DNA of 64,000 nt. Origin: Raillietiella orientalis (taxonomy: Eukaryota). The notes below the pieces were generated by a model. It saw only the letters and a program-made list of their open reading frames with translations, was not told where the DNA came from and made no database searches. Below, one piece after another: positions 21,501 to 54,865 of this stretch; the stretch's first letter is position 1, and every line of letters starts with the position of its first letter. The position numbers and the translations under genes are program-made. The DNA is taken from contig JAYWIR010000003.1 in assembly GCA_036172245.1 (NCBI GenBank), positions 6,138,001 through 6,202,000 on the forward strand, in the 5' to 3' direction.

Positions 21501-21691
21501 TTAAGATTCATTCATTCACCTAAAACAAGCCATCGTGTCAGTAAGGGAAGGTCACTCCCCCCCCCACCTCCTGACTACCCAAATGACACCTTCAGACTTC
21601 CTCTTTCGTTTTCTTTCAATTTTTCATTCGCTTTTGTTTGGGCAGCGCAGTCCCTCATCGTGGAGCTGCGTAGCACCTTCGGCCGCACGCG

Positions 21692-22570
21692 TGGCGTCCA
21701 CGGACCCTGGAGGCCAGCCGTGGACGTCACCAGGTCCCCCCAAGAGGACAGAGCCCACAGGATTCCCTCTTTCCCTCGCCGTCACCCATCACCACCCTTC
21801 CTTACGGCAACCAGCGCACGGGAAACGGAGGGGGAGCCACTGGGGGCCTCCCGTTGTCTCGCTCGGAGGCTTTCTCGGTCGGGCGCAGGCGGCCGTTCTC
21901 TCCGCCCCCTGAAGCGGAAGAGCAGCTGCACTCGCGAGCGTCGACAGCGGTGCGCGCCCGAATCGCCTCGACGGCAGCGGTCCGGGGGGGAGAGGGGGGG
22001 AGGGAGGAAGCTGCGACGCGGCGTGTGCTGCCACCCCGCGACAGCACGCGGTCCGGCACCTCCTCTTCCTCCCGACTGGAGGCCGTCGCCCCACTGGGCC
22101 GGCGATCCGAAGCGACACAACCAAAAGTGAAAGACACGGAGGACGCACGCGCACGCCCTGGCAGCTTGCGGAAGAGCCGGGCAGACGCAGCCGCCGCCGT
22201 CCGCAGTTCGCGCAGCAGAAGCGTTTGCTTGGCGCGCACGTGCGAGTGAGCGGGTGGACGAGCGGAGCGTGGACAGCCAATACACGTCCTCTTCTTGCCT
22301 GGAAGGAAACGCGGGCTGGGCGTGGTCTGGGAGATGAGGGGGTCCCGGTGTTCCCGTGACGTCGCCCATGACGATGCGGAGTCTGAAGCCACCCGCCCTA
22401 CGGTGGCCGTGCGACCCGCAGCGTCCCACCGGAAAAGAAGACGAAGAAGAAGAAGGAAGCCTAAAGCAAAAAAAACGGGTCCGGAATCGGATTGTCTGGA
22501 AGCGTTTTCATCTTTTTCTCCCGCTCCTTCCTCCTTTCACCCCTGCTGGAAGCGGGAGGCTTCCAGAGCA
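21692..22570 (+). repeat. ~880-bp young dispersed direct repeat, copy 2
   Basis: Near-identical to 3471-4350. Confidence 0.95.
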
Positions 22571-23499
22571 CCTCCTCTCTGCATCTCCCCTCCTCGCCAC
22601 TTCGTCCGGCAGCTTCGCTAGCAGCTCTCTGCTGCCTGCGCGGGATCCCCGCTGCCTGGAGCGACGCAAGAGGAGCGCACAGCGTCAGGGGGAGACATCG
22701 ACTCCGCTGTCCGACTCATGAGAATGTCAACGAGATGGTCCCGCCTGAAGCACTGCATAAAATAACATGAGCTTGCAAACATCCTTCGAAGGATGCAGAG
22801 GACCGCCCCCAGCAGAGAACGATGGGGCCTTCTCGCACCCCGCAGATGTGTTTATTTATTTTTTTGTTTTTTTTCTTCTTTTTGCTTGCCCCTTTCCCTT
22901 CTGCTGCCGTGGCGGACCTCGCCGGTCTGCGTATTGGTAACCCGCCAGGCTCCCGTTAAATTGCACGTGGTTGGTCCAACCACAGAAACCGTGGCAGTTT
23001 ATTTTTTCTGCGTGAAAATAAACGCCCCGACGCAACCGGGACAATCCAGAGCACCTCTTCTAGTGGAGCAGGAGTGCGCTGGGGCTCCTCCAGCACGCCT
23101 ACAAAACGGGTCCGGAATAGAGGCGCTCTGTGGAAGCTCCCCGGCTGCTCCCGAAGGATCCTTTCGCAGAACGGCCGGGAAGGCTGCGCGCCCTGCCGCT
23201 TGCTGCCGTTCCTTACCCGGAATCCGTCGAGCGCTCAGCATGCGGCACTGCGCGCGTGCCGAGTGGGAGGGACGTGGCACGCGTGCTCGGACTGCGAACG
23301 GCCCTGCACGCGCACACACCATGCCCCGTAGGCTGCAAGGTGGACAAGAGGGCACGCACCCTGCACCAGGGGGGGGGGAGGTCACGCCTATGACCTCGTC
23401 TGCCTCTCCTTTTCCTGCTTCACGTTCGAATCTGAAGGGACGTCCAGGAAAAAAACGCTTTCCCCTCTTGTGGATGACTCGTGTTCCTACGACCCAGTC

Positions 23500-29901: not shown

Positions 29902-30356
29902 CTTCAAGTTAGAGGGGATCCCAGTTGGGGAACACCCTCTGAATCCAGGAAGAGTTCCGGAGGAAAAAGTCCGTTCCTATTACTCTTGGGAGGGAACCCC
30001 GAGGGGAACCTCTCCTTGTTTCCTCCGCTGAAGAGAGCCCTCAAGAGACGCTTCCCAGTACGCGATGGTACGGCTCCTTTTTCACAACCGGAGGGGAGCC
30101 CCGGAAGGCCCCTTGATTTCTGGAAGATCCCGGAGGTTCCACTTCCATTCTCGGATGGCCAACGGGGACATCCGGCTTGCACCAGTGCCACACCCGAATA
30201 GGACAACCAGCATCATCCCGCGGGACGACTCGAAACAACACGACCCCCCCCCCCTTCCCCATTTCTCGGAGTCGATTCTTCCTCGGGTGGGATTCGAACC
30301 TGCAACGCACGGTGCCACGCGCAAAGGCCGCAGCCACACAGCCGCCAACGCGGGCC
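29902..30356 (-). mobile_element. tRNA-derived SINE-like element, copy 2
   Basis: Minus-strand head GGCCCGCGTTGGCGGCTGTGTGG...GGTTCGAATCCC; same body and end as the other copies. Confidence 0.75.
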
Positions 30357-30917
30357 ACTCCTCGATTCGGGGGATCAGTGGTAGAGGCGCTGATCCACCA
30401 AACACTGAAACAGTCGAATCCTGGGAGCATCAGCGGACGAGACACTAGCCCGGGAAGAGCAATTCATCTGTCTCTTGTGGAGGGCCAGAAGTCTTCCTTA
30501 GAAGCGCCCGCTCTCGCCTGCGCATTTGAAGAGGATGCGAGCGCCGCCCAGGCGCCGAGTGCCTGGCGCTTTCTGCAACCGACGTACAGCTTGGACGTCA
30601 TCTCCAGCACGCGGGATCGGCCTAGGATGAGCGTCAAAAGAAGAACCGAGAAGTCAGTGACAGACTGAGACACAGGGCAAGTGGCTTCTTAGGAAGAACA
30701 CTGGAAGGATTCAGTCTGTCCTCCGGGGCAGCGTTTCAAAAAATTATCTTACGACGGAGCACTTCACAAATCCTGAAATTTTAACGGAATGCCTTGGTTA
30801 TTTTATATATTTTATAGGGGGTGGAAATCCTTCTTTTCCTGGTTGATGATGGAAATCCTGCTTTTCTGTCTTCGCAGTTCTTCGACACGGTTCCACGCCC
30901 CCCAGTGGTGGGTAATT

Positions 30918-31548
30918 CTTCAAGATAGGGGGGACCCCGGGAGGGATCCGCCCTATGAATCCAGGAAGGACTCGGAGTCCGTTCCTCCCACGCCTGGGGA
31001 GGGATCCCCACAAATGGAGATCGCCTCCACCCTGGTTGTCTCCTAAGGGGAATCCAGAAGGGAATCTCCTTCCTTATTCTCTCCGAAGAGACCCTTGGAG
31101 GGGTTCGCTCCAGTTTTTCTTCTCTGAAGGGAACCCGGAAGGAATCCGATCCTGTTTTTACTCCTGTGAAGAGAACCCAGAAGGTGACGCTCCCGAAATT
31201 CAGAAGGACGCAGCTTCCCCGAAGGGATCGGCCCGCGTCTCTGCACTCTCTGGAGAGGTGGTGGCGACACACCTACTCCATCAGTACGACGCGGAGGGTT
31301 CCCCCGGGATGGGGGGGGGGTCCGCTCCTTCACAACTGGAGAGGGAATTACCCGCTCCTCGATTCCTGGAAGGACTCGGTGGTCGACTCCCATTTGTCGC
31401 GGCCCTCATCGGGGGGGCATCCGGTTTTAACCGCTGCCAGTGCCGCACCCGGATGAATGCAGGCCAACCAGAGTCCTCTTGTGGGGTGAACTCGGAACCC
31501 AAGACGCGTCGATTCCTTCGGGGTATTCGAACCCACGACGCATGGTGC
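30918..31548 (-). mobile_element. tRNA-derived SINE-like element, copy 3 (head truncated)
   Basis: B-box remnant GGGTTCGAATACC near 31525; body motif ccctatgaatccaggaaggactc; internal ~40-bp subrepeats. Confidence 0.7.
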
Positions 31549-31867
31549 ATGTAATTAATCATAAACAAATTGAGCAAGTAAATATAAGAGTTCAGAAAGC
31601 AAAGCAAACAGTTATTCCCGAATTTTGTTTATGTAAAATTTTCATAGTTTTCCACGGAACACTTTCGAGTTTCCGCAGTGTTCCGCGGAACACCGTCTGG
31701 GAAACGCTGCTCCAGGAAATGCTTCCGCATCTGCTGCTTGTCTTCAGGGGCTCAGGAGCTTCCGGGAGTGCTGCTCGCCTGAAGTGCGCCAGCGTGACTC
31801 CCTCGGTGAAAGGGCTGGGTTCATCCGATTTCCCTCGAGAGTCTTTGCAAACTTCCGGCGAAAACTT

Positions 31868-32054
31868 CGGAAAGCCCGACATCGAAATGGACCGGTTCAA
31901 AATGGGGTACATGGGTTTCCCTTGCATTCTCAAACTGTATTGTCCCTTGGAAGCCCAATTCCGACACACATTGAAATGCACTCTCTTTTTCCAGCAGGAG
32001 CTGATAATAGCTCATCTCTTCACCCACAGCTCATTATACTGCAATAGAGTGGAC
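31868..32054 (-). pseudogene. Inverted partial duplicate of V-ATPase a exon 1 with the start of intron 1 and 33 bp of upstream sequence
   Basis: The reverse complement matches 34162-34316 (EEMSYYQ...QFEN identical in protein) and 33819-33851, joined at a GTGA microhomology. The start codon region is missing and the donor is changed GT to GC. Confidence 0.9.
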
Positions 32055-33129
32055 CGAAAACAGCAATACGAGCTCAAACAATTCCATTTATAGATGAAAA
32101 AAATCATCAGGATTCCATCCATGATAAAGATGGGAGTCTTTATAGAAATTCATGCCCGCAAAAGATAAAGCAGAATTGAAAACGAAACGGCGTTTACAGC
32201 CGTTTTGGCAAACCGCTCATTGACTGAACGAAAGGAAGGAAAAGTTGGCACTACTCATAGGGTGCAATGGACGGAAAGTTCTCCGGTTTCATATATCCGG
32301 AAATGTGAAGGCCTTGGAAATTCACGAGGACGTTCTGGTATAGGAAGAGGCCGAAAAATAGAACGAAATCACCCGAAGGTTTGTATCCTTATCGAAACTT
32401 TTGTGCCATTTCAGAGTTGGCGTGTGTGCTCACACTGTGATCGCTAAGCTTACACTCAGTGCTGCCAAAGTAATTGGAATCATGTACAATTCAAATTATT
32501 CTACTCAGTCCATCAGGTTATCTTATGGAGATTATTGTGTCTCCCCAATACATAAACAATACAGTATCACTCAAATACAAAAGAATTCGCCAAAGAAATG
32601 TAATTCCAAGTTGATGAACATTTGGTCTCGATATACAAATGGCAGCCTGACTTACTTTCCACGACTATGAAGCAGAAAACAAGTCAACTGTAGTCACATT
32701 GGCGAAGTTCAGAGTCGTCAAAACTCTCCAGGCGGCGTGGTTGCAGAGCAAGGAGCATCCAGCAGCCCCGTTTCACTGCTGCTTCCACGTCTTCAGGCAC
32801 TTGGAATCCAGGTTTGCCTTTTGGCATCCTGGAGACCACCCTGTTTTTGAGCACTCGACCATTTGCTGCCAGAGGAGAAGTGATTCTTGAACTTGTCCCT
32901 TTGGGGCAGTTGGCGGGGCTTCACCAAGTAAACATCCTTTCTCCTGGCGATCAGGAGGACTCCTTGGCGATCCTCGGAGACCAGCACTTTTGAAAAACTG
33001 GCCAGTTGCGCGGTGCAGATCGAAGGGCATCCTCCCAAGTTGGGGCTCGCGCGGACCTTTCGCTCCGCACAGGAAAGATGGCACTCCAGGAAGCTGCGCT
33101 CCGCCACTCCCAGAGAGCACAGGAGACGT

Positions 33130-33700
33130 GCTGCTGCTCCAGACGTCGCGTTCCGCTTCCGCTTCCTCGCAGGATGGCTGGGCTCTCTTCGTGGCGTAAG
33201 GAGGCCCTTCAAAGCTGCCCGTATGTGCACCAGGAGCCGAGCGTGTCCTGCTCGTCTCTTCCGCACTGCCCAATGGGCGTATCCTCTCACCAGGGCGCTG
33301 AATATGAGGAAGGAAGCCCTCTGCCCCGTGCCCTCCCAGAGGGCAGGTTTCTTGCCTGATCAAGCGGATTCTACGAAGGCACCTCCTCTTCGGCTTTGCG
33401 CTGCCTCTCTTCGAGGGCCCTTCGGACCTCCGGTCTTCACCCGGTAAGAAACTTCCGGCAGAACCGGACTCGTCTCGGGAGAGAGCTCCCAGACACCCCC
33501 GCGCCAGCGGGCGCTCACCTCACTCCGACGAAGAACAGGATGCTTTGGACTGCACACATCCACTTTCTTCCGGGAGGGAGCGACGGCTTCCTTCGGCCTT
33601 CACGGATCTCCCGACCTCAGGATCTGCATGGGCAGGTTACCACCAGATCCTGGGAGTATCACTGTCCGGCCACCTCCCTCCCTCAAAGCCCGCAGGTTTC
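33130..33700 (+). mobile_element. Decayed LINE RT fragment just upstream of the V-ATPase gene (approximate limits)
   Basis: YPLTRALNMR (like YKI.T..L..R), SQRAGFLP...ST (like Q.GF.PGRST), ATASFGLHG (like A.V.VNG). Confidence 0.4.
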
Positions 33701-34142
33701 CACCTCTGGATGCGAGTGGCAACTTGGAGCCGCGTCTCGGCGCGCCAGGGGAATTTCCTCCATGCGGTGCTACGGCATCCTCCGAGCAGAACTCCCCTCT
33801 CTTTAGGGAGCTTTCAGAGTCCACTCTATTGCAGTAATGGACTGTGGGTGATTCTCCCATTTTTTTTTTTCTTTTCTTTTCAAGCAAGCGCATTTGTTTA
33901 TTATTCTATTTTTTTTCTATAAATCGGGAAAGGCCCTGCCGAGTTGATTCGGGAGAAGCGCTTTGGCAGCTCCGGCTGATCTTCAAAATGGCAGCCTTCT
34001 ATTTTTAGTGGCTGTCCATTGTTGCGTGGAACGGGGGTGTTTGGATTTTTCTCTCCTCGAGGGGCAGAGGGGGGGGGGGCGAGAGCTCAGAGTACAGTAA
34101 TGTTATGTAATCCCGGAGGAATGGGACGAGCTCTCCGCTGAC

Positions 34143-34259
34143 ATGACTTGGATTTTCCGAAGTGAAGAGATGAGCTATTATCAGCTCCTGCTGGAGAAAG
34201 AGAGTGCATTTCAATGTGTGTCGGAATTGGGCTTCCAAGGGACAATACAGTTTGAGAAT
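34143..34259 (+). CDS. ATP6V0A: V-ATPase subunit a coding exon 1
   Basis: [39 protein letters not shown] matches the family N-terminus (FRSEEM...CVSELG..G.VQF.D); donor GTAAGG at 34260. Confidence 0.93.
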
Positions 34260-36409
34260 GTAAGGAAGCACATGTACTCCATTTTGAATCGGTCCATTTC
34301 GACGTCGGGCTTTCCGGTGCAAATAAGAATATGCAAAGCGTTCTTTTGTTGAAACAGTGCTAATGATCACAAATAATAATTAAAAGTTTTGGAAATTTTC
34401 GTTTGCATTTCAGCTCGGGAGCACGAGATGTCCGGTGTCCTAGAAAAGCTCTGTTTCCAGAACGTTCGCGCAATTTTCTAAAGGGTGCGAAAAAAATTGC
34501 ACAATGCGTAATTTCTGGAGAAGAAAGTGCGCGCAACACGCAATGCAATGGGATGTAACGAAATCAGTTCACGTTTTGTGGATCTTTCCTAAAGGATGCG
34601 CGATTCAGCATGAACGCGTGGATTCGTACTCTGAGCGACGGACGTGCAAATGGTCGTGCAAGGATGCTGCTGTACATGATCGTACGCTCGCGGACGCGCG
34701 TGCGAGGTTGCCGGGACAACGCCGTCGGGTTCGAAGGGTCGATGGATGCCGTGTACCATCCCCGCGTAGAAAGATGGACTGACAGTGTCCGTTGCTTTGG
34801 CTCGCAATTCACGCTGGCTCGGTGTGTTTCGTGTCTGATGTGCCTCACCGTGTGGTAGACCTCGGTCCTCTGTGGTTTTTGGAAAGTGGACGAGAAACCC
34901 AATGAAAATGGAATGCAGACAGCCTTTGGGCCGACCGCGCTCGGAAAAGAGGTGCGCGCCCTCAAGAAATAATGTACGCTCTTTAAGTCGATTTTGCTGA
35001 AAATCGAACAGAAGCATTTTAGATGATGGGCTGAAAAATTTTCTGCTCGCGATAACATAAACTTTCACTCGAAAGGAACTTTAATCGCTATTTCGTTTCC
35101 ACAGATTATCTTAATACTTAGTACTTGCCCAATAGCAAACACACACACAAAAAAAAAATGAATCAATTCCACTTGAGCTTTTAAAAGTCTGTTGTGTCTC
35201 GGGTAATGGGATACGCTTAAAAAGAAGAAGAAGAAGAAAAAAAAAAAAAGATTGTAGATTCCATAAAATGGGCAAAAATAATTGTGTGTTTAGCAGGAGA
35301 ACGCAGCGTCAATGAAATCTCTTCTCGAAATGGCCGCTCGGGGAGTGGGAGGCTCGGAAAAGTTGACGGATTGAATTTCGAATCTGGCAGTTGGGGGGGG
35401 GGGGGGAGGAGGAACCAAAAACAACAGGTGCGAACTTTTTCGTTCTGGAATTGCAGGTCAACTCTGAAGGATGTCCTCTGAATCGCAAGTTCACCGCTTG
35501 CATAGAGAGATGCGTCAAACTGGAGCAGCACCTCCAGTTCCTGAAACAGCAGTGCGATGCTTTGCAGATTCCCACCCGGAAGCCCACCCAAGAGGAAGCT
35601 CAAAGGGTTCCTTCCCCATCATTCCTGGAGGGCCTCGCAGTGAGTTTGAGAAGTACTTGGGCTGGTGGGAGCGAAAGGGCTTTCGGAACGATGGGTGCAT
35701 CGCATTCCAATGCAAGCAGAAACGCTGATAACCGCCCTTGGCGCGGTTATGCACTCTGAGTGGACTGTGAATATGTCACTCTTCGTCCTTCCCTGAAATC
35801 GGAATTCTCAGATTGAGTTTGAGAGTTATAGAGTTTAGAGTTTACTTCTCTACGCGGATAACGATGCCATACCGAATACACATTAAAAAGTTGGTCATTC
35901 CACTTTTAATGGAAACGTTCAAATGCTTTGGGGTAAGGCACCCTTTTCGGAAGGGGGGGGGGGGAGGGGGGAAATCATGCGAAGCATTCAGATGTACTTT
36001 GAGAATTCTTTTTCGAAATAGGAAAGTTTGCAATTCGTCCCACCGATTTCTTGAATGTACAGAAAGTGGGAATTTGCAAGTTGGAAAGGAAGAAAAATAC
36101 CGATGTAGCTTATTGGATGCACAATAGCGAGATTGGCATCTTCCTTTCTCACTTGCCTTCTTCCCTTCTGTTCATCATTGATCATCATCATTATTATTTG
36201 GTGCAATCTGTTTCCCCATTTGCGTTCTTTGTACACGGTTTGCGAACATTCTTAAAATGTGAACTTTTCGATCGCTGCCACCGACTCACCATTTCTTTGA
36301 ATTGAAATTCAATTTTCAAAGGTTATCCCTATCACAAAAATTCGACCTGAAAAGTCATCCCCCAAGGTGGATGCACTGAATTCAAAGGATTCATTCGTTA
36401 CCTTCTGTT

Positions 36410-36440
<31 letters not shown>

Positions 36441-39400
36441 AATGAAAACAAATTGACCTGTGCTTTGTTTCCGATGTTATACTTTCTGTTTGTTTATTCA
36501 CGAATGCCACTTGAAGATCTCCTCCATTTCATTAAAGGGTGACCGATATGGATCTCAAGTTCTGCTTTGATGCTGCATCATCGATTACCGTCCGAATATT
36601 TCTCCTTCCATTCTCCGTTTCGAGATGCTCGAACTCGGTCCACCGTGCACTTTTTTTCCGTGACGCATTTCAGCGCGGATGACGTCATCTCATCCGGAAT
36701 TCAAAGATTCTCAGCAAACGATTCCCAACATTTCCGACAGAATGCTTCTCGCGATATGAGAAATTTCAATTGGCCTTTTTCCCTTTAGGCATCGTTCTGA
36801 AAACGTCTGCATGCATATAAATTTGGACATGGTTTTGTTCATTCTGTGGAACCAGTGCGGTACGATGGAAGGTTGCGTCAATCACGAGCCTAAAAGTAAA
36901 AGAAATTTCCAACTTGAATTGGCCGGAAGAGACCCACAAACGCAGCATAGATTAGGCACAATAGAAGTTGAGAATGGGTCCATTCCGGGAGGGGAAACAA
37001 GTCCAGTTTCCGTATGCAGATTTTTTTTTTTTTCCCCCGATATTCAACACGAAATTAGGGGTCAAGGGACGAAGGTGGGATGCGATTCCACAATATTCCC
37101 TGCGGCCATTCTTATTCGGGATATCAACCGAAAAGGTCTCCGAAAAGAGCGATTCGACGAGCCTATCCCGACGAGTGGCACTTTTGAAAATACATTGCCG
37201 TCTCGAGATCGACTTCTCAGGATGAAACTCTCGAGGGCAGGCGAGACCGCCAGCTTCTGAAAAAAAAAAAAAAAAAAAAAAACAGTCTTCCTGCTGAATC
37301 ATTCAAGTAGGATATATTTGTTATTAGAAAATGATTGCGCAAATAGTTGAGGATTAATCCACAAGGCACTCGCTTTGTGCATCGACTTTATCGCGTTGTC
37401 GTCTTAAAGGAATGCGCAAACGCAATCCGTTATTTTGCGGGCAGTCAATTCGTTGCATCAATTCGATGTTCTTCGTGCAGAAAAAAAATGTCCTTTACAC
37501 GGAAACGGCCGTTGCACGGTGGACGCTTCTATTTGTTTTTGGTTTTCGATCCCAGGCATCGGATTTTCTCCCTATCCCAAGCGCGGGATAAGGTGTGGTG
37601 AATTCTTCCCGACTGCCGGTTAATCTCCCAATCGTTCCGAGATTTTTGATGAAAGTTTGGCAGAGCAGCAGCATATCTGCTCGGGAATGCTTCAGCATGC
37701 TCAGAAACAGAATGCTTTTCTTTTTTTGCAAATCTTAATTGCAAAATCTTTTTTTTTTTTTTTTTTTTCTTCAAATAGCAAGATCTAAGATATCTAAATG
37801 GGTATTACATTTATTGGAACCACGCAAAGCTTGTTGAGCATCATGAAATTCGTAAGATGATTAATTCGGAATTCATCACGTGATTATCAACTTCTGATGA
37901 AGCGCGATGAACTGACACCAAGCAGATTTGTACTTTCGTGATCCCTCGTGAAAAAAAAAAGAAAAAAAAGGAAGAAAAAAATCTTTCGAATATCCGCCAT
38001 TTTGTTTCTTAGTGTTGAGAACATCAATAGCAATGATTTTCGTAGAAACGGCAATTTATTTCCACGTGTTAATATCCGTATTAGTATTTTGTCATGTATT
38101 AATTTGTGGTCCGGATTTTTCAAACAAACATGAAAAGCATATTGCTAATGAGATTGTTTTTTTCTCTCGAGACAAAGGCTAAGTGATACCATTTGCACGC
38201 ACTTTCGAAAGCTGCTCGTGATTAATTGATCCTGAGTCACTTCCTTTCCCTTCTCCCTTTCTGGCCATAGGGCAAATCCAAAAGTTCCATTCCTGCTTTC
38301 CATTTCTAAACTGATTTCCAAAGTGAATGGATAGTTGTCCGTTTCGAGTTTGCGCTCTCTAAACATTTAACTTAGAATTTTCTCCTTGACATGTTTCTCT
38401 TGAGCTGACAGCTTCGCTTTGGGGTCCCTGGGATTATGATGATGATGGTGATGCTTCTTTGAAGTACATCCCCACATCCAACTGATCGCTTTTCGTACCA
38501 CACTCAGCACACAACGACTTTTCACATCGATGCTTCTTTTTTTCTTCTTTTTTTTTTTTTCGTACCCATTTGCACGTGAAATTTCGGTTTGCCATCATCT
38601 TCTAATAAAGCTGACTTGGTTGCTCTTCTTGCCGATGGGACTTTCAGTTCCCAATAAACTAAGAGTGCGATTATTGAGTTTTGCGCTGCCGCACTGTGGT
38701 TGCTTTTCAGCCTCGGTTTCTTCCTTTTCAAAACATCAGTCCCAAGGTTTGCCCCGTTTTCCTCAGCCAGGATACTCTCATAGTTTTAACACTGACTGAC
38801 TTCTCGAAAGTATATTCTGCCTCCCCTTTCGAGAGATTGATTGGATCTTTTGTTTCCAAAGCTTCTTCTCTACAGAAACAACCGAAAATCGTTTCCCCTG
38901 ATACCGCTTAACTGATTTCGAGTGCTTTACCATTATAAGGCTTCATTCACTCTGACAGTCTTCCATAGAGGTTTGTTGTTTATCGAAGTATTTATGCAGA
39001 AGATGTATCTTTAAAATAATGGATAACATTCAATGTCGTGTTTTGTTTTTGAACTGAGCAGCCGGAAATTTCACTAAGATGACCCCAGGATTGAACCGAG
39101 AAAAATGCAGCTGCAGATAAAGCTTTCCTCCTTCGTCATTTGCTCCGAATGAGGAAGCATGTTTCACTCATATGTCCCCGGATGTGCAAGATTCGTGTTC
39201 ATTTTCTCAGTACATTGTGGCTGCTTTTCCGAGAGAGCCACGTTATGTTCATTTTTTACCACATCCTGTACCATAACATGAGGGCATTGTACATTATGAT
39301 GTCTCTCTTCAGAACCAAGAGTGGGAAGCATTTTTAGATATTCTTTTTTGAAACACCGAGTTCCATACACTGCAGCTCTCTCGAGGAATGTTTATTTGAA

Positions 39401-42400
39401 TCTTTCTATTCATCCGAAGAGCAAATTTCATATTTCATCTTTCATTAAAAGGGGGATTAGGAACCGCTTCGGGATTCCCTCGGCGATGCTGGCTTCTCTC
39501 AGCAAAGAAAAAAATCCCCGTAAGTGTAGGATCGGCAGAATTTTCGATCCCGAGAACCACTTCAAGCATTTCTTTCACTGCTGCCGCGCTGATTATTATC
39601 GTAGATGTCAGCAATTTTCCACTGCGACACAGTATCTTTCACGATCACTATGGGTTCATGGAGGCTTCAATCATTCGGTAGGCTTCTCTCGGCACGATGA
39701 ACTCTGCAATCCGTTGCTTTCCTGAGTCTGAGGTTTTTTTCGTTTTGGTTCTCTTGCATTAAGCACTTTTGTGTTCATGATCTGCCGTCCTCATTTTGAA
39801 AAATTTCGTCATGCTTCCTTTGGAAGTTACTCTCTTTTATTTTTACTTGTCTCAGCATCTGCATGAAACGACCATCATCTGGCGCAAGAGAACGATGTGC
39901 TTCACAAATGGCAAAATCTCCGCTTTGTGGTTACATACACATGCACTATTTGAGCTTGAGCAATGACCATTGCATTTCTTCTCATACATCTGTGAATGGC
40001 CCAAATGTTCTTGGAATAAATGTATGCAACAAGAGCTCGTAAATGCATGACAATTTCTTTGAGAAGATTCATCAAGATGTGATCTTCCCTGAGTGCCGCC
40101 GAATGATACTAACACAAATATCGATTGAATCACAAAATAAACGATGATATTCGCTGGTTGATACTGGTAAACAATCATAAGTTGCATAAAGAAAGACTGT
40201 AATAATAATGATAATAATAATTCGAGCAAGCCATAATCGTAATTTTGCTTAAAAGTAAGCTATCTTAAAAGAAAAAGCGAAAGTCGCTCACACTGTGAAG
40301 AGACAAACCCCTGTTTCAATTTCAGTCTTTTTAAATGTGCTCGTGCATGATGAGGAATCCCTTACTTTCTTCCTCTTTGTTATCGAAATTTTGCACCATT
40401 TAGACGAATTCATATTTTTCATGAAATTGTCGCAAGTGATACGTATCACTTTGTGTTTGTTAACAGATATGCAATCGAGCGCTAATGGTTTATCCAAATT
40501 ATCTTCAGTTTCCTATCAAGAGAGCACATTTTCCGAGATATTCTCTCTTGCGATTGATTAGCCTTAGAACTGGGAAGTGTGAGATTTCTCGTTTCTTTCA
40601 ACTCTCCTCGGAAAAAGGGTTTCCTTGTGTGTGTTTTCCCTCGAACACGAATCCATTAAGAAACATGTAATCAGTAGCTTTTGAAATTTTGCGTAATCAG
40701 CTTTGAGTTTTTGTGATCAGCAGCTTCAACAGTAATTTGCAAATACTACTTACAGTGCAAGATCGTGGAAAGGTCACGTGCTGCGGAGGAGAGGACATAG
40801 TAATCGTGGAAGCTTCGAGAAAAATTTTTCAAAAGTTGTGTTTTTGAGGATGCATGGTGGTTTAGAACAAGTTTTTCGTTGGGGTAACAAAACTGGGAAA
40901 GAAGAATTGAATGATTCGGTTTTCAACTCTGTAAATATTTGTTTGGAGAAGATTCATATAAATGATGTTTTTTTTTCAAAAAAAAAAAAAATAATAATAA
41001 AAGGAGCATCGTATGCATACCGATGAGCTTATTTCCTCCTGTGGAATAATCTATACATCAATAATACCCTCTATCGCAGTCATCGCTTCTATCCCTCCCA
41101 TTTACAATCCCGAATAAGCTCCATTTCTTTGATGATTCGTTTGCTGCCAAATCTGTTAGATTCTGATCATTTTAGTTGATCCTGATGAAAATCTCGTGCT
41201 TTCTAAACAGAGATCGTGTGTGTTCGAGACACCTTCTAAGTACAAACAGTGTGATGAAACGTGTAAGCTAATTAAATGAATAAATGCCCAGCCACCTGTA
41301 TGCATTTCTTTGATGAATATTATTTAATTTAATTAGATCTGCACAACGTGTACATACATGCATTTATGTGTATTTAATGTAAACAATCTAAACATATCTT
41401 GTTCTTCGCGTGATTCCCGAATTCTCAAAGACTCTCGGAGATGACTATTTCTCTCGTGGATAACTCGAGAATCCTCAGAAACCTAAACAGTTATAGCATC
41501 GCTCCATACTTAATCTCTTGAAAGTTTCAGATTCATTTCATTGCAACGAGAAAAAATTGCCAAGTCGCGAAGAGAACAGCACAACAGGGTGGGGATTTTA
41601 AAGCATCGTATTTTTCGTCCTTGGAAACTCTTAATGGGGCAGTGCAAAAATTTGTGGAATTGCATAGTTGATCTAATGTTTAAGGTGATGACTCATCGTT
41701 GCCTGTTGCAAAAGGGATGACATAAAAAATAGACTTTTGCACATAATGTGCTACTATAAATCCCTTTAGGAAGAAAAAAATCATTTCTCTTCCAGTCAGC
41801 GAATCGGCTTTTTCTTCATAAGACTCGTAAAGGTCAATGTCGCCATTGTCTGTAGCAAGTTTCTCTTTTCTCTGCCGGCCCTTCCAGACCATCCGGATAT
41901 ACATGAATGCAAGAGTGGAAAACAAAACAAACTATCCGGATGTACAGGAGGTCATTTCGCTGCAAGAACGGCTCCAGAATAGCATTCCTCCGGTGCTTGA
42001 GGAGAGCAAGAAAACCTCGGTTTTTGCAGACAATACCCGCAAACTACCGGTCAAGCGATAAGCGAGTCGCAAGTGCACCAGTGCAATGACTACAATACAA
42101 TGGCTACAGTCACGTGTACATTTTGTATCCATGTACACTTGTAGATTTCTCATGCACATGCAAAGCTGTCACATGATTAATCAGTGCTTTATCTCTCTCT
42201 AATCATGCGTTCCATCCTCGGTTACAGGATCAAGGAGTCATCTGAGTCATCGTAACTATATAGAAAATAATTCGAGCCCACACCACATTCTGCAAAACTG
42301 CTGACTTATTAATGCACCCTGTGATAAACAAGAGCCCTGGAAAGAGCAGTCCAAGTTCTCCTTGAACTGGGCTTATTTTCACTTGAACGATTTTCGATAC

Positions 42401-45400
42401 TTAATGCGGAAGTGGGAAACGATCCCCTGCAACTCCAAATCAGACCTCTTTGCAGGATTTCCACACACTTCACAGTGCTTTTCCGATGACCTGCTTTGCT
42501 TTTGCACAGTGAGATGCAGAACTGCTTTCAGGTGGTGCTACCATGAAACAGACCATACTGAAACACTCGGTCAAGTTTCCTATTGAGTTTAAAAAGGAAG
42601 CATCAGGAAGCTTTTCTTCTCTGTTTGGTTTGCGGGACTTTTTTTTTTTTTGTATGAAATGCTTTTTTTTCGGAGAACTCGTGGTTTGCATGGCGGACTC
42701 GATAGAATGTTCATTTGTACCGTGACTCAGCCAAGATTTGCAGATGTCTATACCGAATCCATCGTGTAGAGAAAACTTCGTCCTATGTGCATATTTGCAC
42801 TTTGCAACCTCATCTGGTCGAGTGCGCTCAAATTTCGGAAGTTTAACCACACTGTACAGCTCACATCTTTTACCGGGGCGAAGTTAATTTTTCAAACAAA
42901 TTTCAATGAACGATAATTTCAAAACATAAAAGCAATTTCCAAACAAACATTATTCAGTCTTTAATTTTGGTGCAAATACTTGGCAAAAACCTTTTTGCCT
43001 CATTCGTTCTTGGTTTCGCCGTTAGTTTAAATGTGATGCGTAAATTATTTACTAAAACAAAAAGTTTATGTATCACGTTCAGAGTGTGAACCCTACTCAA
43101 GTATGATTCAAAATTCAGTCTCTCTCTTCAGTTCACAATTCACAATTTTGTTACGCTTCTGATCACACAAAACCCACATGCAAACACATTTCCCGTATTC
43201 CTGAAATAACTTCATTTTCATGGTTTTGGATTCGTACACATCTCTGTCCGCGTACCGTTGAAACGTTTTTAGAAACATATAGAATCTATCGCAAGAATTT
43301 TTTTTTTCCTTACGTGTTTGGTAATCGTGTGCTCATCAGGATGCATTCTGGAATAGGGGATTTTATTATAAGGCTACGAGTCGTAGCGACAGAAAATAAG
43401 GAATTACTATTTTCACTTCACTATCCAAAATGCAATACGACCTCTTCTGTGCTTTACGACTTTTATTATTTCATTCGAGAAGAACCATTGGCTCTTCCAC
43501 TCGAAGTATTTGAGTTATAACTCAGTTATGTGACTTTCTGTTCGACTCCTATATCAAAGAATGGTTCCATTCAATTCCTGTTACGCCCGAAATTTTGATT
43601 TCAACACTTTCAGACAACTGCAAGAGTAGCTTGAAGAGATGACTATTCCGTGAAAACTATTTGCCTTCTGTATTAAATACTGTATCGGAATGATAGCGTG
43701 ACACGAAATTTGTATCATTATTTCTTTGTACCAAGTAAGCTATTATTCCTTTCTGATGAAATAAGCTGGCATCTCGGATTCTTAACAGGATGATTTCTCG
43801 AGCTTCATGCTGCCGAAATGCATATTCTTTCGCATGTTACCTAAATAGAAGAGAGTAACCTATTTCACGGTTATTCTGCTATGGAACTGTAGTATTTACT
43901 ATCCGTTCATCAACATTACGCAACGAAATTTTTCAAGATGGACCCTAACGGTGCTCCTCGCTGGCAAAGCTAATCGGAAACTCCATAACGTTACTGTGAA
44001 ATTCAACGTTGGTTAACCATCACATGGCAAAAATGCCTTATTGACATTAATGTGTAGACGTCCACGTGCTATAATGATCACCTTTATCGCTTTTTTTAAG
44101 AGGGCACCCTCTTTTCCATGTTGAGTTTTTTCGGAACTGCCAGGCGCAGGAGCGAGAAAGACACAATGATAAAGCGTACCAGTTACCAGCTATAAGCAAT
44201 TTTTTTTTTTCTTCCAGTCATTACTTCTGCTGCTGCTTCATCCTTTTCTTCTTTCACTGTTCTAACATCTGAAGCAAGTGATCGTATCTAATTTTACTTT
44301 GTGTTTCTTAGGCTGAAGTAGAGGAGATGGCAGAGGAGATCCAGATGCTGAACAAAGGAACAAGAGCACTAGAGAAAAAATTGATGCACCGATATGAATA
44401 CCGAGAAATTTTGCAAAGATCTAAAAAGTATTTGAAAAAGGTATATGTTTTTTCAGAAATCTGACTCATGTTGTGGATAAGGCATGTCAGAGCTTTGTAC
44501 AACTCGTTTATTGTAGACTGATTCAAGACCTGAAGGAATTTCACAAAATCTTGAAAAATTCATTTTCTGTTGTTTGAAAATGCGACCCGACGGCGGTGTC
44601 AGCATAGTATAGTACAGCATTGAAAATACATAATATTCATATTTGAGTAAAGCAAAAAGATGGCTTCGAGAATGGAAGCAAACATTTTGGTTTCGTTTTT
44701 GTTTCACATGGCGTCAAGTTTTGTATAGTACAGCAGATTCAGAGAGCTGCCGAGTTTATTTTTTCAAGTAACTCTTTCTGATGGTTGGATTGCTGGAGTA
44801 ATGGAGCGTTCGCCTATCGCTGTGCAAAAAAGCATTTTCCAGTTTGTGCCAAGCATTAGCATTTCTTATCAGATTATTTACAATGATACTGAAGCTTATC
44901 TGAGTATCCCAAGGAATCTTTATCCAAATCAAGCATCATAAAAGCTGGACGAAGTGCTCAAGAAGCTTCTGCCCAAATACAAGGAAATTTTACTCGCAGA
45001 TTTTAGATGAAAATTTCATCATCGAGTGCAAATTATTTTGGGGAACTGAAACTTTAATTTGCTTCGCAACCGCCAAGTAGAGTTTGCAGATTCGGCAGCT
45101 GTGTTGCAATTTGGTTTCTTTCTGGATTTTACATTCTGTACACGTTGTCTGTGAACGTGCTTCATTTACAAGCGGAGGATCGGTGCGTTCGCATTCAGCT
45201 TTTAGATCATTCTTTTGAAAATTCCTCAACTTCCCAACTCATCCCATAATGCAAACTGTTTTTGAATTCTTAAAATAACGTTAAACGTGGAATCTGAATT
45301 TTGAAACGCTAGATTCGCAGCTCGCTTATGCTCACCAGGTGATACGATTGAGAAGACGTACCACACCATTTCACTGGAGCAAAATGGGTGCATTAATGAA

Positions 45401-48400
45401 TAAAAACGTCAGAGCAGCAACGCCAAAATGAAATGTGGATTGTGTGAGGGAAATCTGAACACTGAAATCAGACACCTGATTTCATCTTGTTCATGTTTCT
45501 GGAAGTTCAGTTTCACTTTCGTTCCGTTGCTGATAGCCTCCTCATTGCAGAGCAATCGCAATTCTGCTTTCTTCAATGCTTCCAAGCGACGGGTTGAGAC
45601 ACCTCAAAGGAAATGATCTCACTTCGAAAATTATAAATCATTGGGCTCTAGAAAAGGAAAGATTTCAATTATTCGCAACGGATTATCCTCCCTCCCCCCA
45701 TGAAATTCCGCTCCTGGTTTTCTCCCTAAACTTTACTCAACTGCAACTTAAAGGAATTTCTTTCTTATAGAGGAATAATTTTATGACAGCTCAAGAGAGT
45801 GTGATATTGAGAATGTTTTTCTTTGAAAACGTCGTTTTTTTGTAATTTAGTTTGAAACTTTTCGAGCATCTGAGTGCAAGTTTTTTTTCTTGATTCCATG
45901 CTTTGGAATTACATCGTTTCAAGGAATTGGAGTTGTTCACGTAATATAAGAAACCGAAATGGACATACAGAGGGAAAGACTCCAAATACGGGAAGAATGA
46001 AATCATTTATGCTCCTCAGAAACAGCTTCAGAATCTGTTGTTCACTCGAAATATTTGTGAAAGATAATTCAATCTCCTAAGGAAACACACATATTTTTCA
46101 AGTGTTCATCTCCGATAAGGAGAAAGTCAAATAATTGCACACAATGCCTGATAGAATGAAGCTATTTGCGCGTTATTTGGATTATGACGGTATCATACTC
46201 TGAATGAAAGTATTAAACAAATAATACTGATTGCAATGTAATCTCATTAAATGATATTCTGTTCGAAAAGTTCGTTGCATTCATGTGCTAAGTACTTGAA
46301 GTAACAACTAAAAATATTTAGTTGTAGGTGGACTTGTGTGAGTTTGACGGAGAAAATTTTGAAATGCTAAAGCTCTCCATAACTAATGCTTTCTAACCAA
46401 ATAGGAAAATATTGGGATGGCAAGGTTTGATAACTTCAATGTGATAACTCCAGACAACTGAAAAGTTGTCCAATCTAAACTCGCAGAACTTATAGATGTT
46501 TTTGCATTGATCTCCGGAGGAAATTATATCTTTATTCACGATATGAGTAGAAAAAAAAAAAAAAAAAATCACGTGAATGGTATCTTCACGTAGATGTAAT
46601 ATCATTTTCAGGAAAATGGAAAGCATCTCAGGGAGCTTTCCAAATTAGCATCTGATAGTAATCCGTTTTTGTGTTGCTTAGCATAAGTTTAGCCGTGTTC
46701 AGGATTTATTGCTTAGAGCATCTTCAACATACCAGTGAATGTTTTCTCTCTGATATTGAAATGAAAAAAAAAAAAGGAAACCCCTTTTTCTGTTATTTTC
46801 TGATATGGATTAAACTTGGGAAAAAATTGGGGAATGCTTTGGGGAATCAAGTGAACTTTCAATACATGACATCGCGAAAGTTCACGTATGAATAAGCTTT
46901 AGAAGCCACTGTGTTAAAATATTCTTCAGTTGATTACATATAATGTAGAATATGGATATAGAACCTATTTCAAGAACATAAACTGAAATAAATAAACTGT
47001 ATACTTTTTGTATAACGAATGAGTATGCGTTAGAAATGCATTAGAAAAATAAGCCGAAAAACCGTACTCTTCAAGGAATGAGGCATAGAAAAAAGCATAA
47101 GATAAGAGAGCACGATGGGAACGTAATTATAAAAGTCGATGCTCAAATCAATTTTACGAAATTAAGAAATAAAACAAAGGGTTGGGGAATCGAAAGTTGT
47201 CCTGTGAAAGAGGAAAGGACATGTCCTGAAAGAGAAGTGCACGTGGTCCTGAGATGCTTAAACCTGCACTGATTATTACATCTCAAATGCAGATTAATGC
47301 TTTAAATATTGATACAACATCACTTGGTGGAACATATGAAAAATTTCCATTACACCATGAGCAAGTGATTTCATAAAACACAATTTTGCACATTGTAAAC
47401 AACGGTGATTTAAACATTCAGCCAAGTTTCTCGACACAATTTTTTCTTTATGAATCTGCATGTCCTCTATCAGAAATATTAATTCGTATTTCGGTCAATG
47501 TTTCCATAAAGTCGAAATCGAGTGAAATAAACACAAACTGAGATATTCTGATTGATTTCTTAGACTGGAAACGTTGTGGTACTCAGATTTAGTGTTTCTG
47601 TAGGTCCACATGGCTGCTGTCATTTCCAACAGGGCATTTCGAAATCATAATACTGATGAGAAACTTCTTCCACTCATTTGCATACTTTACAAACTTTTTG
47701 GGAATTTTTCGTGACTCTGTCAACCAAAATCACTAGAAAAGATCGCGCAAAGCATTCAGCTGAGAATTTCAGCGGTAACTGCAGCAAATCTTTCAAAATA
47801 TCTAGAATCAATAGATCAAAGACTATCGTATTTTCTAATGCTCATGACGATGTTTTTGTGCTAACACTAATGTGATTACCTATTATACTTCAGAGAATAT
47901 GTCGCTCCGAAAGGAATATTCTTCAGATAAATCCTAATTCTTCTATCCAATATTCTTTTTTGTATGTGAAAATATCTTCGTTTCATAAAAATGCAATAAT
48001 TGTGCTTTTTAAGATAAGACTACCATTCTCAGGTAAACTCATGTAATACGGCATAGTTTCCTCTTGTTTTTGCCAGGCAGGGAAATTCAGTTCTAACGAT
48101 GCCTATTCAGAAGTGACAGAGGCACAGCCAGATGAGAAATTACTCTTATTAGCAGAAGAAGAGATGACTACTTGTAGGTCAGTAACTAAGACATAAATTT
48201 TCAAAATCAAATGTGAACAATCTAAGTTTCTCACAGTACTCCCACCCAGCTGAAAAACCGATTTTTGATCTGTAGAACGGCTATGCATTTCACCAGGCAT
48301 CAACATAAATACTCCACTTTTTGCACTTTGGAGGATCGATGAGAATAGGTTTCAGTTTCCGCTTGGTACAGAGAATGGATGTTGTTAGGATCTCTCTTGA

Positions 48401-51400
48401 AATACTGAAGGAAAAAAACACTGTCGTATATCATACATACTAAAGAGCAAAATTTTCGAGATTTCAAGTATTTTATTTTATTTTTTTCTTTTAAATGCTT
48501 ATGACGAGGTTTTAGGATCATTTTTTCAGGACTTGAAATGTCGCAATGTCGCAAAATATTCATTCAGTGGAATGTCTATGTAAAGCATTCTGTCTTCTAT
48601 ACAGATTTTTGTAATTTATGTAGATGCACTCATTATCTTTCTTCAATATGCTACCAAAGGTTTTATCAAAAGTTTTTTCTTATTTATATCCTTAGCCGGA
48701 AGAAGAAAGCGAAGATGCTGCTATCGCTGTTTCCAGTGTATCCTTAGACGTGTTATCTTCCAGGCATACGAACAAGTTCAAGCAGTTAGGGTCAGTATTT
48801 TTATACCAGAAGGCTACAGATAGAAAGAAATTCATACCGAATGCATTAGGTAACAAATAGGACAAAGCTGATTCCGTTTAGGGATGTATACACTAATTGA
48901 TTACAGTGGATCCTTGTTCAATCCTTCATTTCCTGATCTGAATTCCTATCGTGTGACTGAGTAAATATATTTATTTGCAATTTATTCCATAGGTTTATAA
49001 CAGGTATCATCGACCGCTGCAGGGTCGTGGCGTTTGAAAGAATGTTGTGGAGAATAAGTCGTGGAAACATTTACTTCGTACATGAAGACACCGAAGAGAT
49101 AGTCTTTAGAACGAAAGTACGAATCTTTCAATATACAGTTTATTCCAATAGTTTTATCCAGAAATCATCATTAGGTGTGAAGAGGTCATTCTTCATCGCA
49201 AGTTACGTTGGAAGACAAATGTCTATCAAGGTAGAAAAAGTATGTGAAGGTTTTCACGCTTGCACATACGAGTTACCTAAATCGTTATCCGAAGAGCAGA
49301 AAACAGAAACTGAAACGGAGGAATTAATACGGGATTACACATTTGTGAGTTTATTTTATAAACAGGCATTCGTTACTTGAAATTCCAATTTCGTGAAATA
49401 ATTCATAAGCACTTTTACCTTTTAAATGACGAAGCATTTCGAATATCAAGGGGAACAAACTGCTCAAGAATCATGAGGTGGACTAAGTTTGATTATGCGA
49501 TTCTTAAAACCCAAAGCTTATTTATGGGTTTAAGCATTCTTATTTATCGTTACAAAAGGATTCAATGCCACTGTTAAAACATCAACGAGCAATAGGCAAA
49601 TACGTGAAATGAATGTTGCAGATGTCCGATTCATTGAAAGCTTCGGTATGGATTTTTCGTTGAACTGTACGATGAGCGAATTTAATTCACTTAAGAAAAG
49701 CGGCACAGACTCAATGCATCTGCTGCTTTTGCGCGAAAGCAGCAATTAAACCGAGTGGAAAGAAAGTCCCAACTGCTTTCGCAAGCAGCTTTGCAAGACA
49801 AACGTCTCTCAAGGCACAAAAGATATGTGCAAAGGTTCTCATGGTGGCACATACGAGTTGCCTAAATCGTTCTCCGGAATATCTTTCTACGGAAATCGAA
49901 ACGCAACTTCAATCCCAGCCTTTCCTTCCTGTGGGTTTAGAGAAACGCAACGTCCAGGATGCAAGACATTCTCTGCCTGCCGGCCGTGCCATCTCTTCTC
50001 CTTCAGCTTGACACTGACTGTTTGCAACCCGCCCGCTGTGCGTGTGCCTGCCGTGTTTTGGCTTTGCGTGTTGGGTTCCATCGGGAATCGAACCCGCTCG
50101 AGTTTTCCGGACGGTCCGCTTTACTGCTTCTCGCAGACGTCCGGTTGTGTTACAAAATCAAATCGAGGAAATTCCACTTGCTTCAAATAAAGACGAGCTC
50201 TTCCAGCAGCCTCAAGCACGATCGGAAAGAGCGGAATCCATGTTGGTTCAAATAGAATCGGTAGGTGGAAAAAAAATCAAAATTCAAATTGGTTCACTAA
50301 TAATCCTGGAAAATAAACCTATCAACGATGATGACTTCATTCAGCAAAAGAGTTTTTGCTATTTTCTTTTTGATACCCCTGCTTTCACGTTTTGAAAATC
50401 TCTGCAAAGAACTCGTGTTGTCGCCTTACGATTTCGAAAGCCCGTGATTGTATTCACTCTCTTCCAAGTTAGTACTGATTGTGCTCGAAGGTTAGTTTCA
50501 AGAGATTCCTTATGTGGGCGTAAGCTTCCAAAAGATGGTTCCCCAAATCCTCTGATTCACTTTATGCTTGAAAAATGCAAAGTAATTGCGGATTGCTTTC
50601 AATAATTCATAAAGTGAAAATCATCGTCCACTCTTGATAAGAATTACCTCATCGTCATAGCTCAAGTTCATATTTCATCAAACGCTCACTCAAAGAATCA
50701 TGTCATCAGCATCCTCCTGTTTCGAATCGGAATTTCAAAGTGGTTTCCTTCTGTCGTTTTTTTCTCACCTTGATCTTAGCCAAAAGGCCGAGAAGAGATA
50801 TTTTCACCATGGAAGATGGAGAAGGCTCATTGCGCCGAAAATTCGGTAATATTCGCTGTTGGCTTGCTAGGTAAAAACTTTGGGTGCGGGGACAAGCAAA
50901 CAAGAGCAAAATACAAACAAGTGATTTGTTTTCAAGTAAGAATTTGTTTTGCCTCCTCCTCCCCTTCTCAATTTCAATTTTAAGCTCCATCTCACTGATC
51001 AAGGATTCGAAAAATTCAAGGCCCAATGCATCATCTGTTTTTCGATCCGTGTCATGATTACCGTTAGCGAAGCATCCTGGAGATCAGACTGGACTCTCGT
51101 TTTCGAAGGAAAGCAGAACCGAAATTTTTTCTCAAAGAAACAAAAAAAACAGACATTTTGATTCTTATTTTGAAATCTAAAACTATACTATAAGGAATAA
51201 TTAGTATAAACCAAACCTTTTGAAAATCGAAAGCATTGATAATTTGTTGCACATAGCCGAATCAAAAAAGCCAAACAAAAACAATTCATGAGAACGAGTA
51301 GTAAGCTTAAGAATAGCCCGAGAGAAATAATTTGTTTTAGGGTTCCTATTGCTCAGCTTAGTCGGTTTCTTTTCGAAGAAGAATGAAATTGTCAATCTTC

Positions 51401-54400: not shown

Positions 54401-54865
54401 GCAAATAGGAAAACGATCAACACAGAGTCTGTTATGCAAAATGTTATTACTGCCATAGAATTCAGTCTTGGCTGCATCTCTCATGCAGCTTCATACCTCC
54501 GTTTATGGGCTCTGTCCTTGGCTCATGCTGAAATGAGTGATGTAATATGGGTCATGATAATGAGGCCGGCTTTGCAAACACCTGGTTTCACAGGATCCAT
54601 CATGACATTTGTGGTATTTGCTTGCTGGGCTTTGCTGACCGCTGGCATGCTAGTTTGCCTTGAAGGTCTTTCAGCCTTCCTGCATACATTGCGTTTACAC
54701 TGGTAAACTACATTACTCAAAGATACTTGTGCACATCTGTGTTTCAGGGTAGAATTCCAAAGTAAATTTTACAGAGGACGAGGAACCAAGTTTCAACCAT
54801 TTACGTTTGATAACCTGGAATCAGCATGCTACCCAGATGGAGCTACAACTGCACATAAGCACTAG
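34143..54865 (+). CDS. ATP6V0A: V-type proton ATPase V0 subunit a (116 kDa; Vph1/Stv1/Vha100 family), divergent paralogue; 12 coding exons, 806 aa
   Basis: Manually joined exons 34143-34259, 35457-35639, 44312-44440, 48077-48177, 48993-49116, 49162-49344, 53065-53277, 53320-53470, 53515-53651, 53695-53831, 53875-54702, 54748-54865 (2421 nt). All introns are GT-AG with consistent phases. Family motifs: [66 protein letters not shown] (essential Arg), [23 protein letters not shown]. Confidence 0.95.
35457..35639 (+). CDS. ATP6V0A: V-ATPase subunit a coding exon 2
   Basis: ttgcag acceptor, GTGAGT donor; [29 protein letters not shown]...PSFLEGLA aligns with family LN..V..FQRKFV.EVRRC.EMERKLR.L. 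Confidence 0.88.
44312..44440 (+). CDS. ATP6V0A: V-ATPase subunit a coding exon 3
   Basis: cttag acceptor, AG|GTATAT donor, 43 codons in phase 0; [43 protein letters not shown] fits the N-terminal coiled-coil segment. Confidence 0.8.
47130..47272 (+). mobile_element. AT-rich decayed LINE ORF2 C-terminal fragment in intron 3
   Basis: KLR....GIE....[15 protein letters not shown] resembles the L.IE.....ER.C....E.E.H....C tail of non-LTR ORF2. Confidence 0.3.
48077..48177 (+). CDS. ATP6V0A: V-ATPase subunit a coding exon 4 (variable linker)
   Basis: tttttgccag acceptor, AG|GTCAGT donor; stop-free acidic linker [33 protein letters not shown]. It supplies the phase 0 to phase 2 change needed to reach exon 5. 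Poorly conserved region, so less certain. Confidence 0.65.
48993..49116 (+). CDS. ATP6V0A: V-ATPase subunit a coding exon 5
   Basis: [28 protein letters not shown], hallmark FERMLWR..RGN motif; ccatag acceptor, GTACGA donor. Confidence 0.9.
49162..49344 (+). CDS. ATP6V0A: V-ATPase subunit a coding exon 6
   Basis: [33 protein letters not shown] corresponds to family KSVF.....G......V.KICEGF.A..Y..P; atccag acceptor, GTGAGT donor. Confidence 0.88.
49779..49876 (+). pseudogene. Degenerate direct duplicate of part of V-ATPase a exon 6 inside intron 6
   Basis: aagacaaacgtctctcaagg...gcacatacgagttgcctaaatcgttctcc resembles 49196-49292 (translates ..[12 protein letters not shown] vs [12 protein letters not shown]); contains indels and has no matching splice sites. 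Confidence 0.75.
53065..53277 (+). CDS. ATP6V0A: V-ATPase subunit a coding exon 7
   Basis: W...V...K..Y..LNMC......IE.ECWIP pattern; 71 codons; ctag acceptor, GTCAGT donor. Confidence 0.88.
53320..53470 (+). CDS. ATP6V0A: V-ATPase subunit a coding exon 8
   Basis: [17 protein letters not shown]...[11 protein letters not shown]; flanked by 42- and 44-nt GT-AG introns. Confidence 0.92.
53515..53651 (+). CDS. ATP6V0A: V-ATPase subunit a coding exon 9
   Basis: [21 protein letters not shown], first transmembrane helices. Confidence 0.93.
53695..53831 (+). CDS. ATP6V0A: V-ATPase subunit a coding exon 10
   Basis: [25 protein letters not shown] motif; 43-nt introns on both sides. Confidence 0.93.
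53875..54702 (+). CDS. ATP6V0A: V-ATPase subunit a coding exon 11 (membrane domain)
   Basis: [51 protein letters not shown]; donor TG|GTAAAC. Confidence 0.96.
54748..54865 (+). CDS. ATP6V0A: V-ATPase subunit a coding exon 12 (terminal)
   Basis: gtttcag acceptor; (W)[20 protein letters not shown]...; TAG at 54863-54865. Confidence 0.93.

Follow-up and report, generated by a model that had tools for sequence, protein, structure and literature searches.

The gene for subunit a of the V-ATPase of Raillietiella orientalis has, about 1.8 kb upstream of its first coding exon, a short inverted copy of its own start, which is probably a neutral, non-functional, templated micro-duplication (a pseudo-exon) of the template-switch kind, like those attributed to break-induced replication mediated by microhomology (MMBIR). 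All coordinates are positions in a window of 64,000 nucleotides (nt), i.e., the whole stretch of DNA analyzed (contig JAYWIR010000003.1, 6,138,001 to 6,202,000). The insert is 187 nt long (31868 to 32054) and consists of two collinear pieces of the parental region, both inverted, which are joined by a 4-nt microhomology (GTGA) and which skip 310 bp of the parent. Its borders are sharp, and it is flanked by a 7-nt direct repeat. A preliminary description of this DNA had reported the inverted repeat; the second copied piece, the 310-bp skip, the GTGA junction and the flanking direct repeat are new.

Structure of the inverted repeat and the insert

Positions 31868 to 32023 are the reverse complement of 34162 to 34316 (156 aligned columns, 94.9% identity, BLAST E value of 1.9e-65), with a spacer of 2138 nt between the arms. 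A repeat finder splits the same arms into 31920 to 32023 with 34162 to 34265 (98% complementary) and 31868 to 31920 with 34264 to 34316 (91%). Comparison of the window with itself (E value of ≤1e-6) gave 10 repeat pairs, among which this was the only substantial inverted one, the sole other inverted match being a 40-nt local palindrome at 3229 to 3268. The inverted repeat is real and beyond chance. The preliminary description had placed the arms at these positions, about 2.1 kb apart, with one synonymous GAG/GAA change in 98 exonic nt and seven intronic differences, including a donor change from GT to GC, and both BLAST and a base-by-base list bear this out, the seven being six substitutions and a 1-nt insertion. 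Its statement that exon 1 had been copied holds for the 98 exon-derived nt but not for the exon as a whole, which begins at 34143, so that the copy starts within codon 7. The features concerned are the following.

31859 to 31865 (no strand): left 7-nt direct repeat CGAAAAC, separated from the insert by TT; flank comparison
31868 to 31925 (minus): intron-derived part of the copy, 58 nt, donor GC and not GT; six substitutions and a 1-nt insertion relative to 34260 to 34316
31926 to 32023 (minus): exon-derived part of the copy, 98 nt, codons 7 to 39 (EEMSYYQ...QFEN), internal ATG at 32015 to 32013; BLAST, one difference from 34162 to 34259
32020 to 32054 (minus): second copied piece, 35 nt, source 310 bp further upstream in the parent, GTGA overlap at 32020 to 32023; BLAST, 88.6% identity, E value of 3e-5
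32055 to 32061 (no strand): right 7-nt direct repeat CGAAAAC, immediately after the insert; flank comparison
33819 to 33851 (plus): parental source of the second piece, upstream of the gene, with a 4-codon mini-open reading frame (ORF) from ATG 33837 to TGA 33851; BLAST and 17-mer
33852 to 34161 (plus): 310 bp of the parent missing from the copy, including ATG 34143 and codons MTWIFR(S); BLAST
34143 to 34259 (plus): coding exon 1 of V-ATPase subunit a, 39 codons, phase 0, donor GT at 34260 to 34261; homologue alignment
34162 to 34316 (plus): parental arm, 98 nt of exon 1 and 57 nt of intron 1; repeat search and BLAST
35457 to 35573 (plus): start of exon 2, acceptor AG at 35455 to 35456 (behind ttgcAG), phase 0; Pfam match and homologue alignment

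The peptide of exon 1 aligns to residues 3 to 38 of solved a1 subunits (E value of 2e-6), and its alignment to full-length animal homologues begins at residue 1 to 4. We set the start of the exon at ATG 34143 because the peptide aligns from residue 1 to 3 of solved or full-length subunit a proteins, and intron 1 then covers 34260 to 35456. Searches with full-length homologues (tblastn) match the copy at 32021 to 31926. With the repeat beginning only at 34162, within codon 7, the true ATG is absent from the copy, as is the conserved F-R-S of FRSEEM. The skipped 310 bp encode this FRS, which is conserved in solved and full-length homologues, so the parent represents the ancestral state and the deletion lies in the copy; a later insertion of the segment into the parent was ruled out on the same grounds. 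Neither is the gap a spliced intron, because no placement of 33852 to 34161 reads GT...AG (the options being GT..AA, TG..AG, etc.).

The second piece differs from 33819 to 33851 by a TA insertion and an adjacent GA/AG swap. Its 17-mer core occurs exactly at only two sites in the window, and two matches were found in 0 of 100 shuffles. Past the borders of the insert, local alignment found no homology above shuffled sequences (on the intron side the observed score was reached by 26 of 200 shuffles, on the upstream side by 132 of 200), and no trace of the 310-bp segment near the copy rose above shuffles either. As for the flanking repeat, a post hoc check showed that the two flanks share a 7-mer at 276 of the 63780 positions of the window (0.43%). 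Two small details of the second piece are probably due to chance: the mini-ORF (ATG...TGA) is kept in both parent (33837 to 33851, plus strand) and copy (32036 to 32020, minus strand), with its stop at the GTGA junction, and in the copy the inserted TA gives rise to a TATAAT that lies some 20 nt upstream of the internal ATG.

Divergence between the arms

The only exonic difference is at 34196 (G in the parent, A in the copy). The intronic ones, given as parent/copy, are 34261 T/C (the donor change, at intron position +2), insertion of a G between 34263 and 34264 (+4/5), 34268 G/A, 34270 A/C, 34278 T/C, 34289 T/C and 34303 C/T. Five of these seven fall between intron positions +2 and +19, and the donor context of the copy reads AAT followed by GCAAGG. 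Hypermutability of CpG was ruled out as the source of the intronic differences (CpG observed/expected of 0.87, with one of the seven, 34303 C/T, on a CpG by our own reading).

This contrast between exon and intron had been taken in the preliminary description as a sign of selection on the copy or of gene conversion, with Fisher's exact test proposed as a check. Nominally, the asymmetry stands. The test gives P = 0.0043 for 1 of 98 exonic versus 7 of 58 intronic aligned columns, P = 0.010 for substitutions only (6 of 57 in the intron) and P = 0.0034 to 0.013 when the second piece is added. The argument for selection fares worse, because it takes for granted that all divergence would reach the exon as well, and a plain Fisher test is the wrong null: noncoding divergence sums two lineages that are free to change, whereas the parental exon changes only at synonymous sites, which make up 17.7 of 96 (18%). 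We therefore took as the null a copy that evolves neutrally and a parental exon under constraint, with about half of the noncoding divergence assigned to the parental lineage. Under it the expected exonic share of the differences is 0.40 to 0.50, and the probability of one exonic difference or fewer becomes 0.031 to 0.068, depending on what is counted. The asymmetry is marginal and post hoc; the case was chosen for its contrast, and the counts are tiny. A literature search on exon-biased identity in inverted pseudogene copies returned organelle papers only.

Template switching as the probable origin

Template switching fits the insert because it is composite, inverted and locally templated, has sharp borders and is joined internally at a microhomology. 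Among the traits that PMC2621351 gives for MMBIR template switching are discontinuous duplications mixed with deletions and inversions and junction microhomology of 2 to 5 bp. The copy resembles such fork stalling and template switching (FoSTeS)/MMBIR events in being a discontinuous duplication (two collinear inverted pieces) with an internal deletion (the 310 bp skipped) and an inversion, in its 4-nt internal microhomology and in having its template about 2 kb away. It differs in size, since the human copy-number variants of this type range from kilobases to megabases compared to 187 nt here, and in lacking clear microhomology at two of its three junctions. The event is also old (5 to 12% divergence), which places the mechanism beyond direct observation. 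Seen as a partial-gene (unprocessed) pseudogene, the copy is typical in being truncated, with intron sequence retained, start codon and canonical donor lost and no homology crossing its borders, and atypical in being unusually short, inverted and composed of two pieces.

The events could have run as follows. While DNA was being replicated or a break repaired, an end at about 31867 would have copied the nearby start of the subunit a gene from the opposite strand, beginning with the tract from 34316 down to 34162. It would then have jumped across 310 bp via the GTGA microhomology and copied from 33851 down to 33819, after which the end would have rejoined its own template a few bases back, leaving the 7-nt direct repeat. 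Lacking the 310 bp next to the promoter, the authentic start codon and a GT donor, the insert would since have been decaying. The exon part would seem better kept mainly because the parental exon is fixed; noise from the small numbers, and perhaps some conversion of one arm by the other, would add to the effect.

Several points weigh against this explanation. The run of identity and its end are abrupt, with no difference in 64 nt (34197 to 34260) followed by five in 18 nt, and the switch coincides exactly with the border of exon and intron. The shortage of exonic differences leans weakly against pure neutrality, and the two outer junctions (31867/31868 and 32054/32055) have no clear microhomology. 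Moreover, while the anatomy of the insert, the GTGA overlap, the sharp borders and the flanking repeat are observed directly, we infer by which mechanism and in what order the insert arose and that it is neutral, the last from the missing parts and not from a measurement.

Alternative explanations

One way to account for the exonic deficit is that the asymmetry in a functionless copy is due to intrachromosomal conversion of one arm by the other or to a divergent allele having served as the template, the exon having been recently homogenized or both lineages having formerly been functional alleles. If both exon lineages were constrained or homogenized, be it by function of the copy, by conversion or by divergent-allele copying, a single exonic difference would be fully expected (P = 0.40 to 0.52), and the arms are inverted, 2.1 kb apart and 95% identical, as suits conversion. 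On the other hand, 156 nt is little homology for gene conversion, and a conversion tract is not demonstrable from a single sequence pair. We regard this explanation as improbable, and in any case it refines the template-switch origin and does not replace it.

Of similarly low probability is a role as an antisense or hairpin regulator. A transcript of the plus strand over the copy would carry the complement of exon 1 and might pair in trans with the mature mRNA or, if it read on into the gene, fold back over exon 1 and its 5' splice site; either route would yield small interfering RNAs (siRNAs) or mask the start region. The fold-back, already suggested in the preliminary description, is thermodynamically possible according to RNA folding: the 156-nt arms are predicted to pair at -290.6 kcal/mol as plus-strand RNA, and the predicted minimum-free-energy fold of 31868 to 34316 pairs 149 of the 156 bases of the first arm with the second. 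In plus-strand RNA five of the six transitions stay as G-U pairs, and it folds 15 kcal/mol better than the minus strand (-275.4 kcal/mol), although this wobble bias is not significant (one-sided P of 0.11). A more specific version, which we hold to be a shade less probable still, makes the copy a nascent trans-acting antisense or siRNA source against the mature subunit a mRNA through plus-strand transcription across 31868 to 32054. Selection for pairing with the spliced mRNA would then keep the exonic 98 nt while the intronic part decays from the splice junction onwards. Such selection predicts an abrupt drop in identity at the splice junction, as is seen here, and it is because of this fit that we do not set the probability of an antisense or hairpin role any lower. 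Against it, the exon/intron asymmetry reaches only P values of 0.03 to 0.07 and is post hoc, there is one extra arm only, so that a hairpin requires read-through from some upstream promoter across the promoter of the gene itself, and an organism that silenced a V-ATPase subunit a gene constitutively would probably pay a cost.

The comparison with known hairpin RNAs (hpRNAs) goes both ways. In Drosophila simulans, de novo hpRNA loci can arise beside their progenitor from an inverted exon fragment (PMC10317233). Such loci, and the pseudogene hairpins that give endogenous siRNAs and stem from inverted gene fragments, share with our copy the inverted exon fragment near its progenitor and the predicted long near-perfect duplex. 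Indeed, the long, near-perfect inverted arms homologous to the target gene that characterize hpRNAs are present here. In known hpRNAs, however, both arms lie in a dedicated transcript and give Dicer-dependent siRNAs, whereas here one of the arms is exon 1 of the gene itself and the loop would contain the promoter region of the gene.

An RNA-mediated origin, in which a fragment of unspliced or aberrant pre-mRNA was reverse transcribed and inserted by machinery of the long interspersed nuclear element (LINE) type, appears very unlikely. It could claim the 7-nt flanking direct repeat, the AA that separates the repeat from the 3' end of the copy in sense orientation, and the 310-bp skip, which a template jump of the reverse transcriptase could give. 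Yet the copy retains 57 nt of intron 1, unlike a processed retrocopy, from which introns are removed, the skipped 310 bp have no GT-AG reading and there is no poly(A) tract, just the AA at the 3' end. We also prefer DNA templating over retroposition because the source is only about 1.8 kb away, a distance very unlikely for a dispersed retrocopy and expected for local DNA templating. An assembly artefact, whether chimeric or due to a fold-back join, is about as unlikely. Artefacts of the fold-back kind lie side by side and are almost identical, and here the arms differ by seven substitutions and one indel, the copy skips 310 bp internally, and a 2.1-kb spacer separates it from its source, with unique sequence on both sides.

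The least probable proposal is that the minus strand holds a coding mini-gene or an alternative first exon: the in-frame ATG (32015) does open a 64-codon frame, and all 32 complete codons common to both arms encode identical residues, but this frame has no Pfam match, its donor is a GC after AAT and no V-ATPase exon-2-like match was found downstream on the minus strand. The suggestion that a minus-strand transcript could encode an N-terminal fragment of subunit a is accordingly weakened, as the copy offers none of what marks a functional exon 1, i.e., start, conserved N terminus, GT donor and downstream exons. A fragment captured by a transposon (Pack-MULE or Helitron) was rejected as well, the ends of the insert not being reverse complements by our own reading, with no dedicated test made. 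By BLAST, the flanks of the insert have no other occurrence within the window.

The subunit a gene and its surroundings

Plus-strand ORF pieces from 35367 to 54862 match the Pfam family V_ATPase_I (PF01496), collinear with the profile and with scores of up to 290 bits (53846 to 54703). The latter piece is the most conserved C-terminal exon (286 amino acids, plus strand), and the best of its several thousand database relatives are only 40 to 45% identical, the best matches all being ordinary subunit a proteins, mostly from animals. Protein searches with this exon among proteins of similar or greater length thus returned no close relative that could serve as an outgroup. From these identities, the gene may belong to a divergent lineage or be a fast-evolving paralogue, either being compatible. 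An exact 42-mer of exon 1 had no match among metagenome contigs. Within the same gene, part of a coding exon at 49196 to 49291 (plus strand; ORF 48961 to 49377, Pfam profile positions 159 to 261) has a diverged direct copy 583 bp downstream, at 49779 to 49876 (plus strand), with 80.6% identity and a frame-breaking 2-nt indel. This is probably a pseudo-exon in the next intron, although it could still be an alternative exon. Being a second and older partial exon copy in the subunit a gene, it indicates that small fragment copies recur at this locus.

Upstream of the gene, Pfam scans were run on stop-to-stop ORFs, and no neighboring gene or transposon protein was recognized in those tested. For the 27 ORFs that surround or span the copy, the sole match at an E value of ≤1 was DUF719 (E value of 0.17, below its cutoff), with none to V-ATPase; the 125 ORFs of at least 80 amino acids between 18.7 and 34.2 kb gave one subthreshold match (SYNE1, E value of 0.0044), and the 150 ORFs of at least 90 amino acids between 2 and 19072 gave no family at an E value of ≤0.001. 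A plus-strand ORF of 220 amino acids that runs across the copy had no homologue among 1.84 billion representatives. Neither Rfam (gathering thresholds) nor ARAGORN found a match in the whole window, and Tandem Repeats Finder detected one 16-nt array, unrelated to the copy.

The window shows a sharp compositional shift, from a GC content of 0.56 to 0.66 (1 to 28 kb) to 0.33 to 0.41 (36 to 60 kb), rising again after 60 kb, with the start of the V-ATPase gene at the transition and a CpG observed/expected ratio of 0.87 in both parts. Within the GC-rich region lies an 892-bp direct repeat (3467 to 4358 and 21688 to 22578, plus strand) with 98.1% identity between units 18 kb apart. There is also a dispersed repeat family with 67 to 78% identity and no recognized protein domain (12232 to 12483, 29936 to 30353, 30912 to 31506 and 62742 to 63349), of which the third copy ends 361 nt to the left of the insert. 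Endpoints close to existing repeats are a mark of FoSTeS/MMBIR-type events, but the proximity seen here may be coincidence.

Implications

The copy most likely belongs to the already known class of template-switch relics. If it is neutral, it illustrates, cleanly and on a small scale, a composite inverted templated insertion next to an essential gene. Its chief use is then as a warning for the reading of gene-fragment copies: since hardly any divergence comes from the parental exon, a contrast in identity between exon and intron does not by itself demonstrate that the copy is under selection. Should the antisense or hairpin role be true after all, the copy would represent a first step in the birth of such a regulator from the first exon of the gene itself, i.e., an hpRNA-like regulator caught at birth, with the exon of its own target as the potential second arm.

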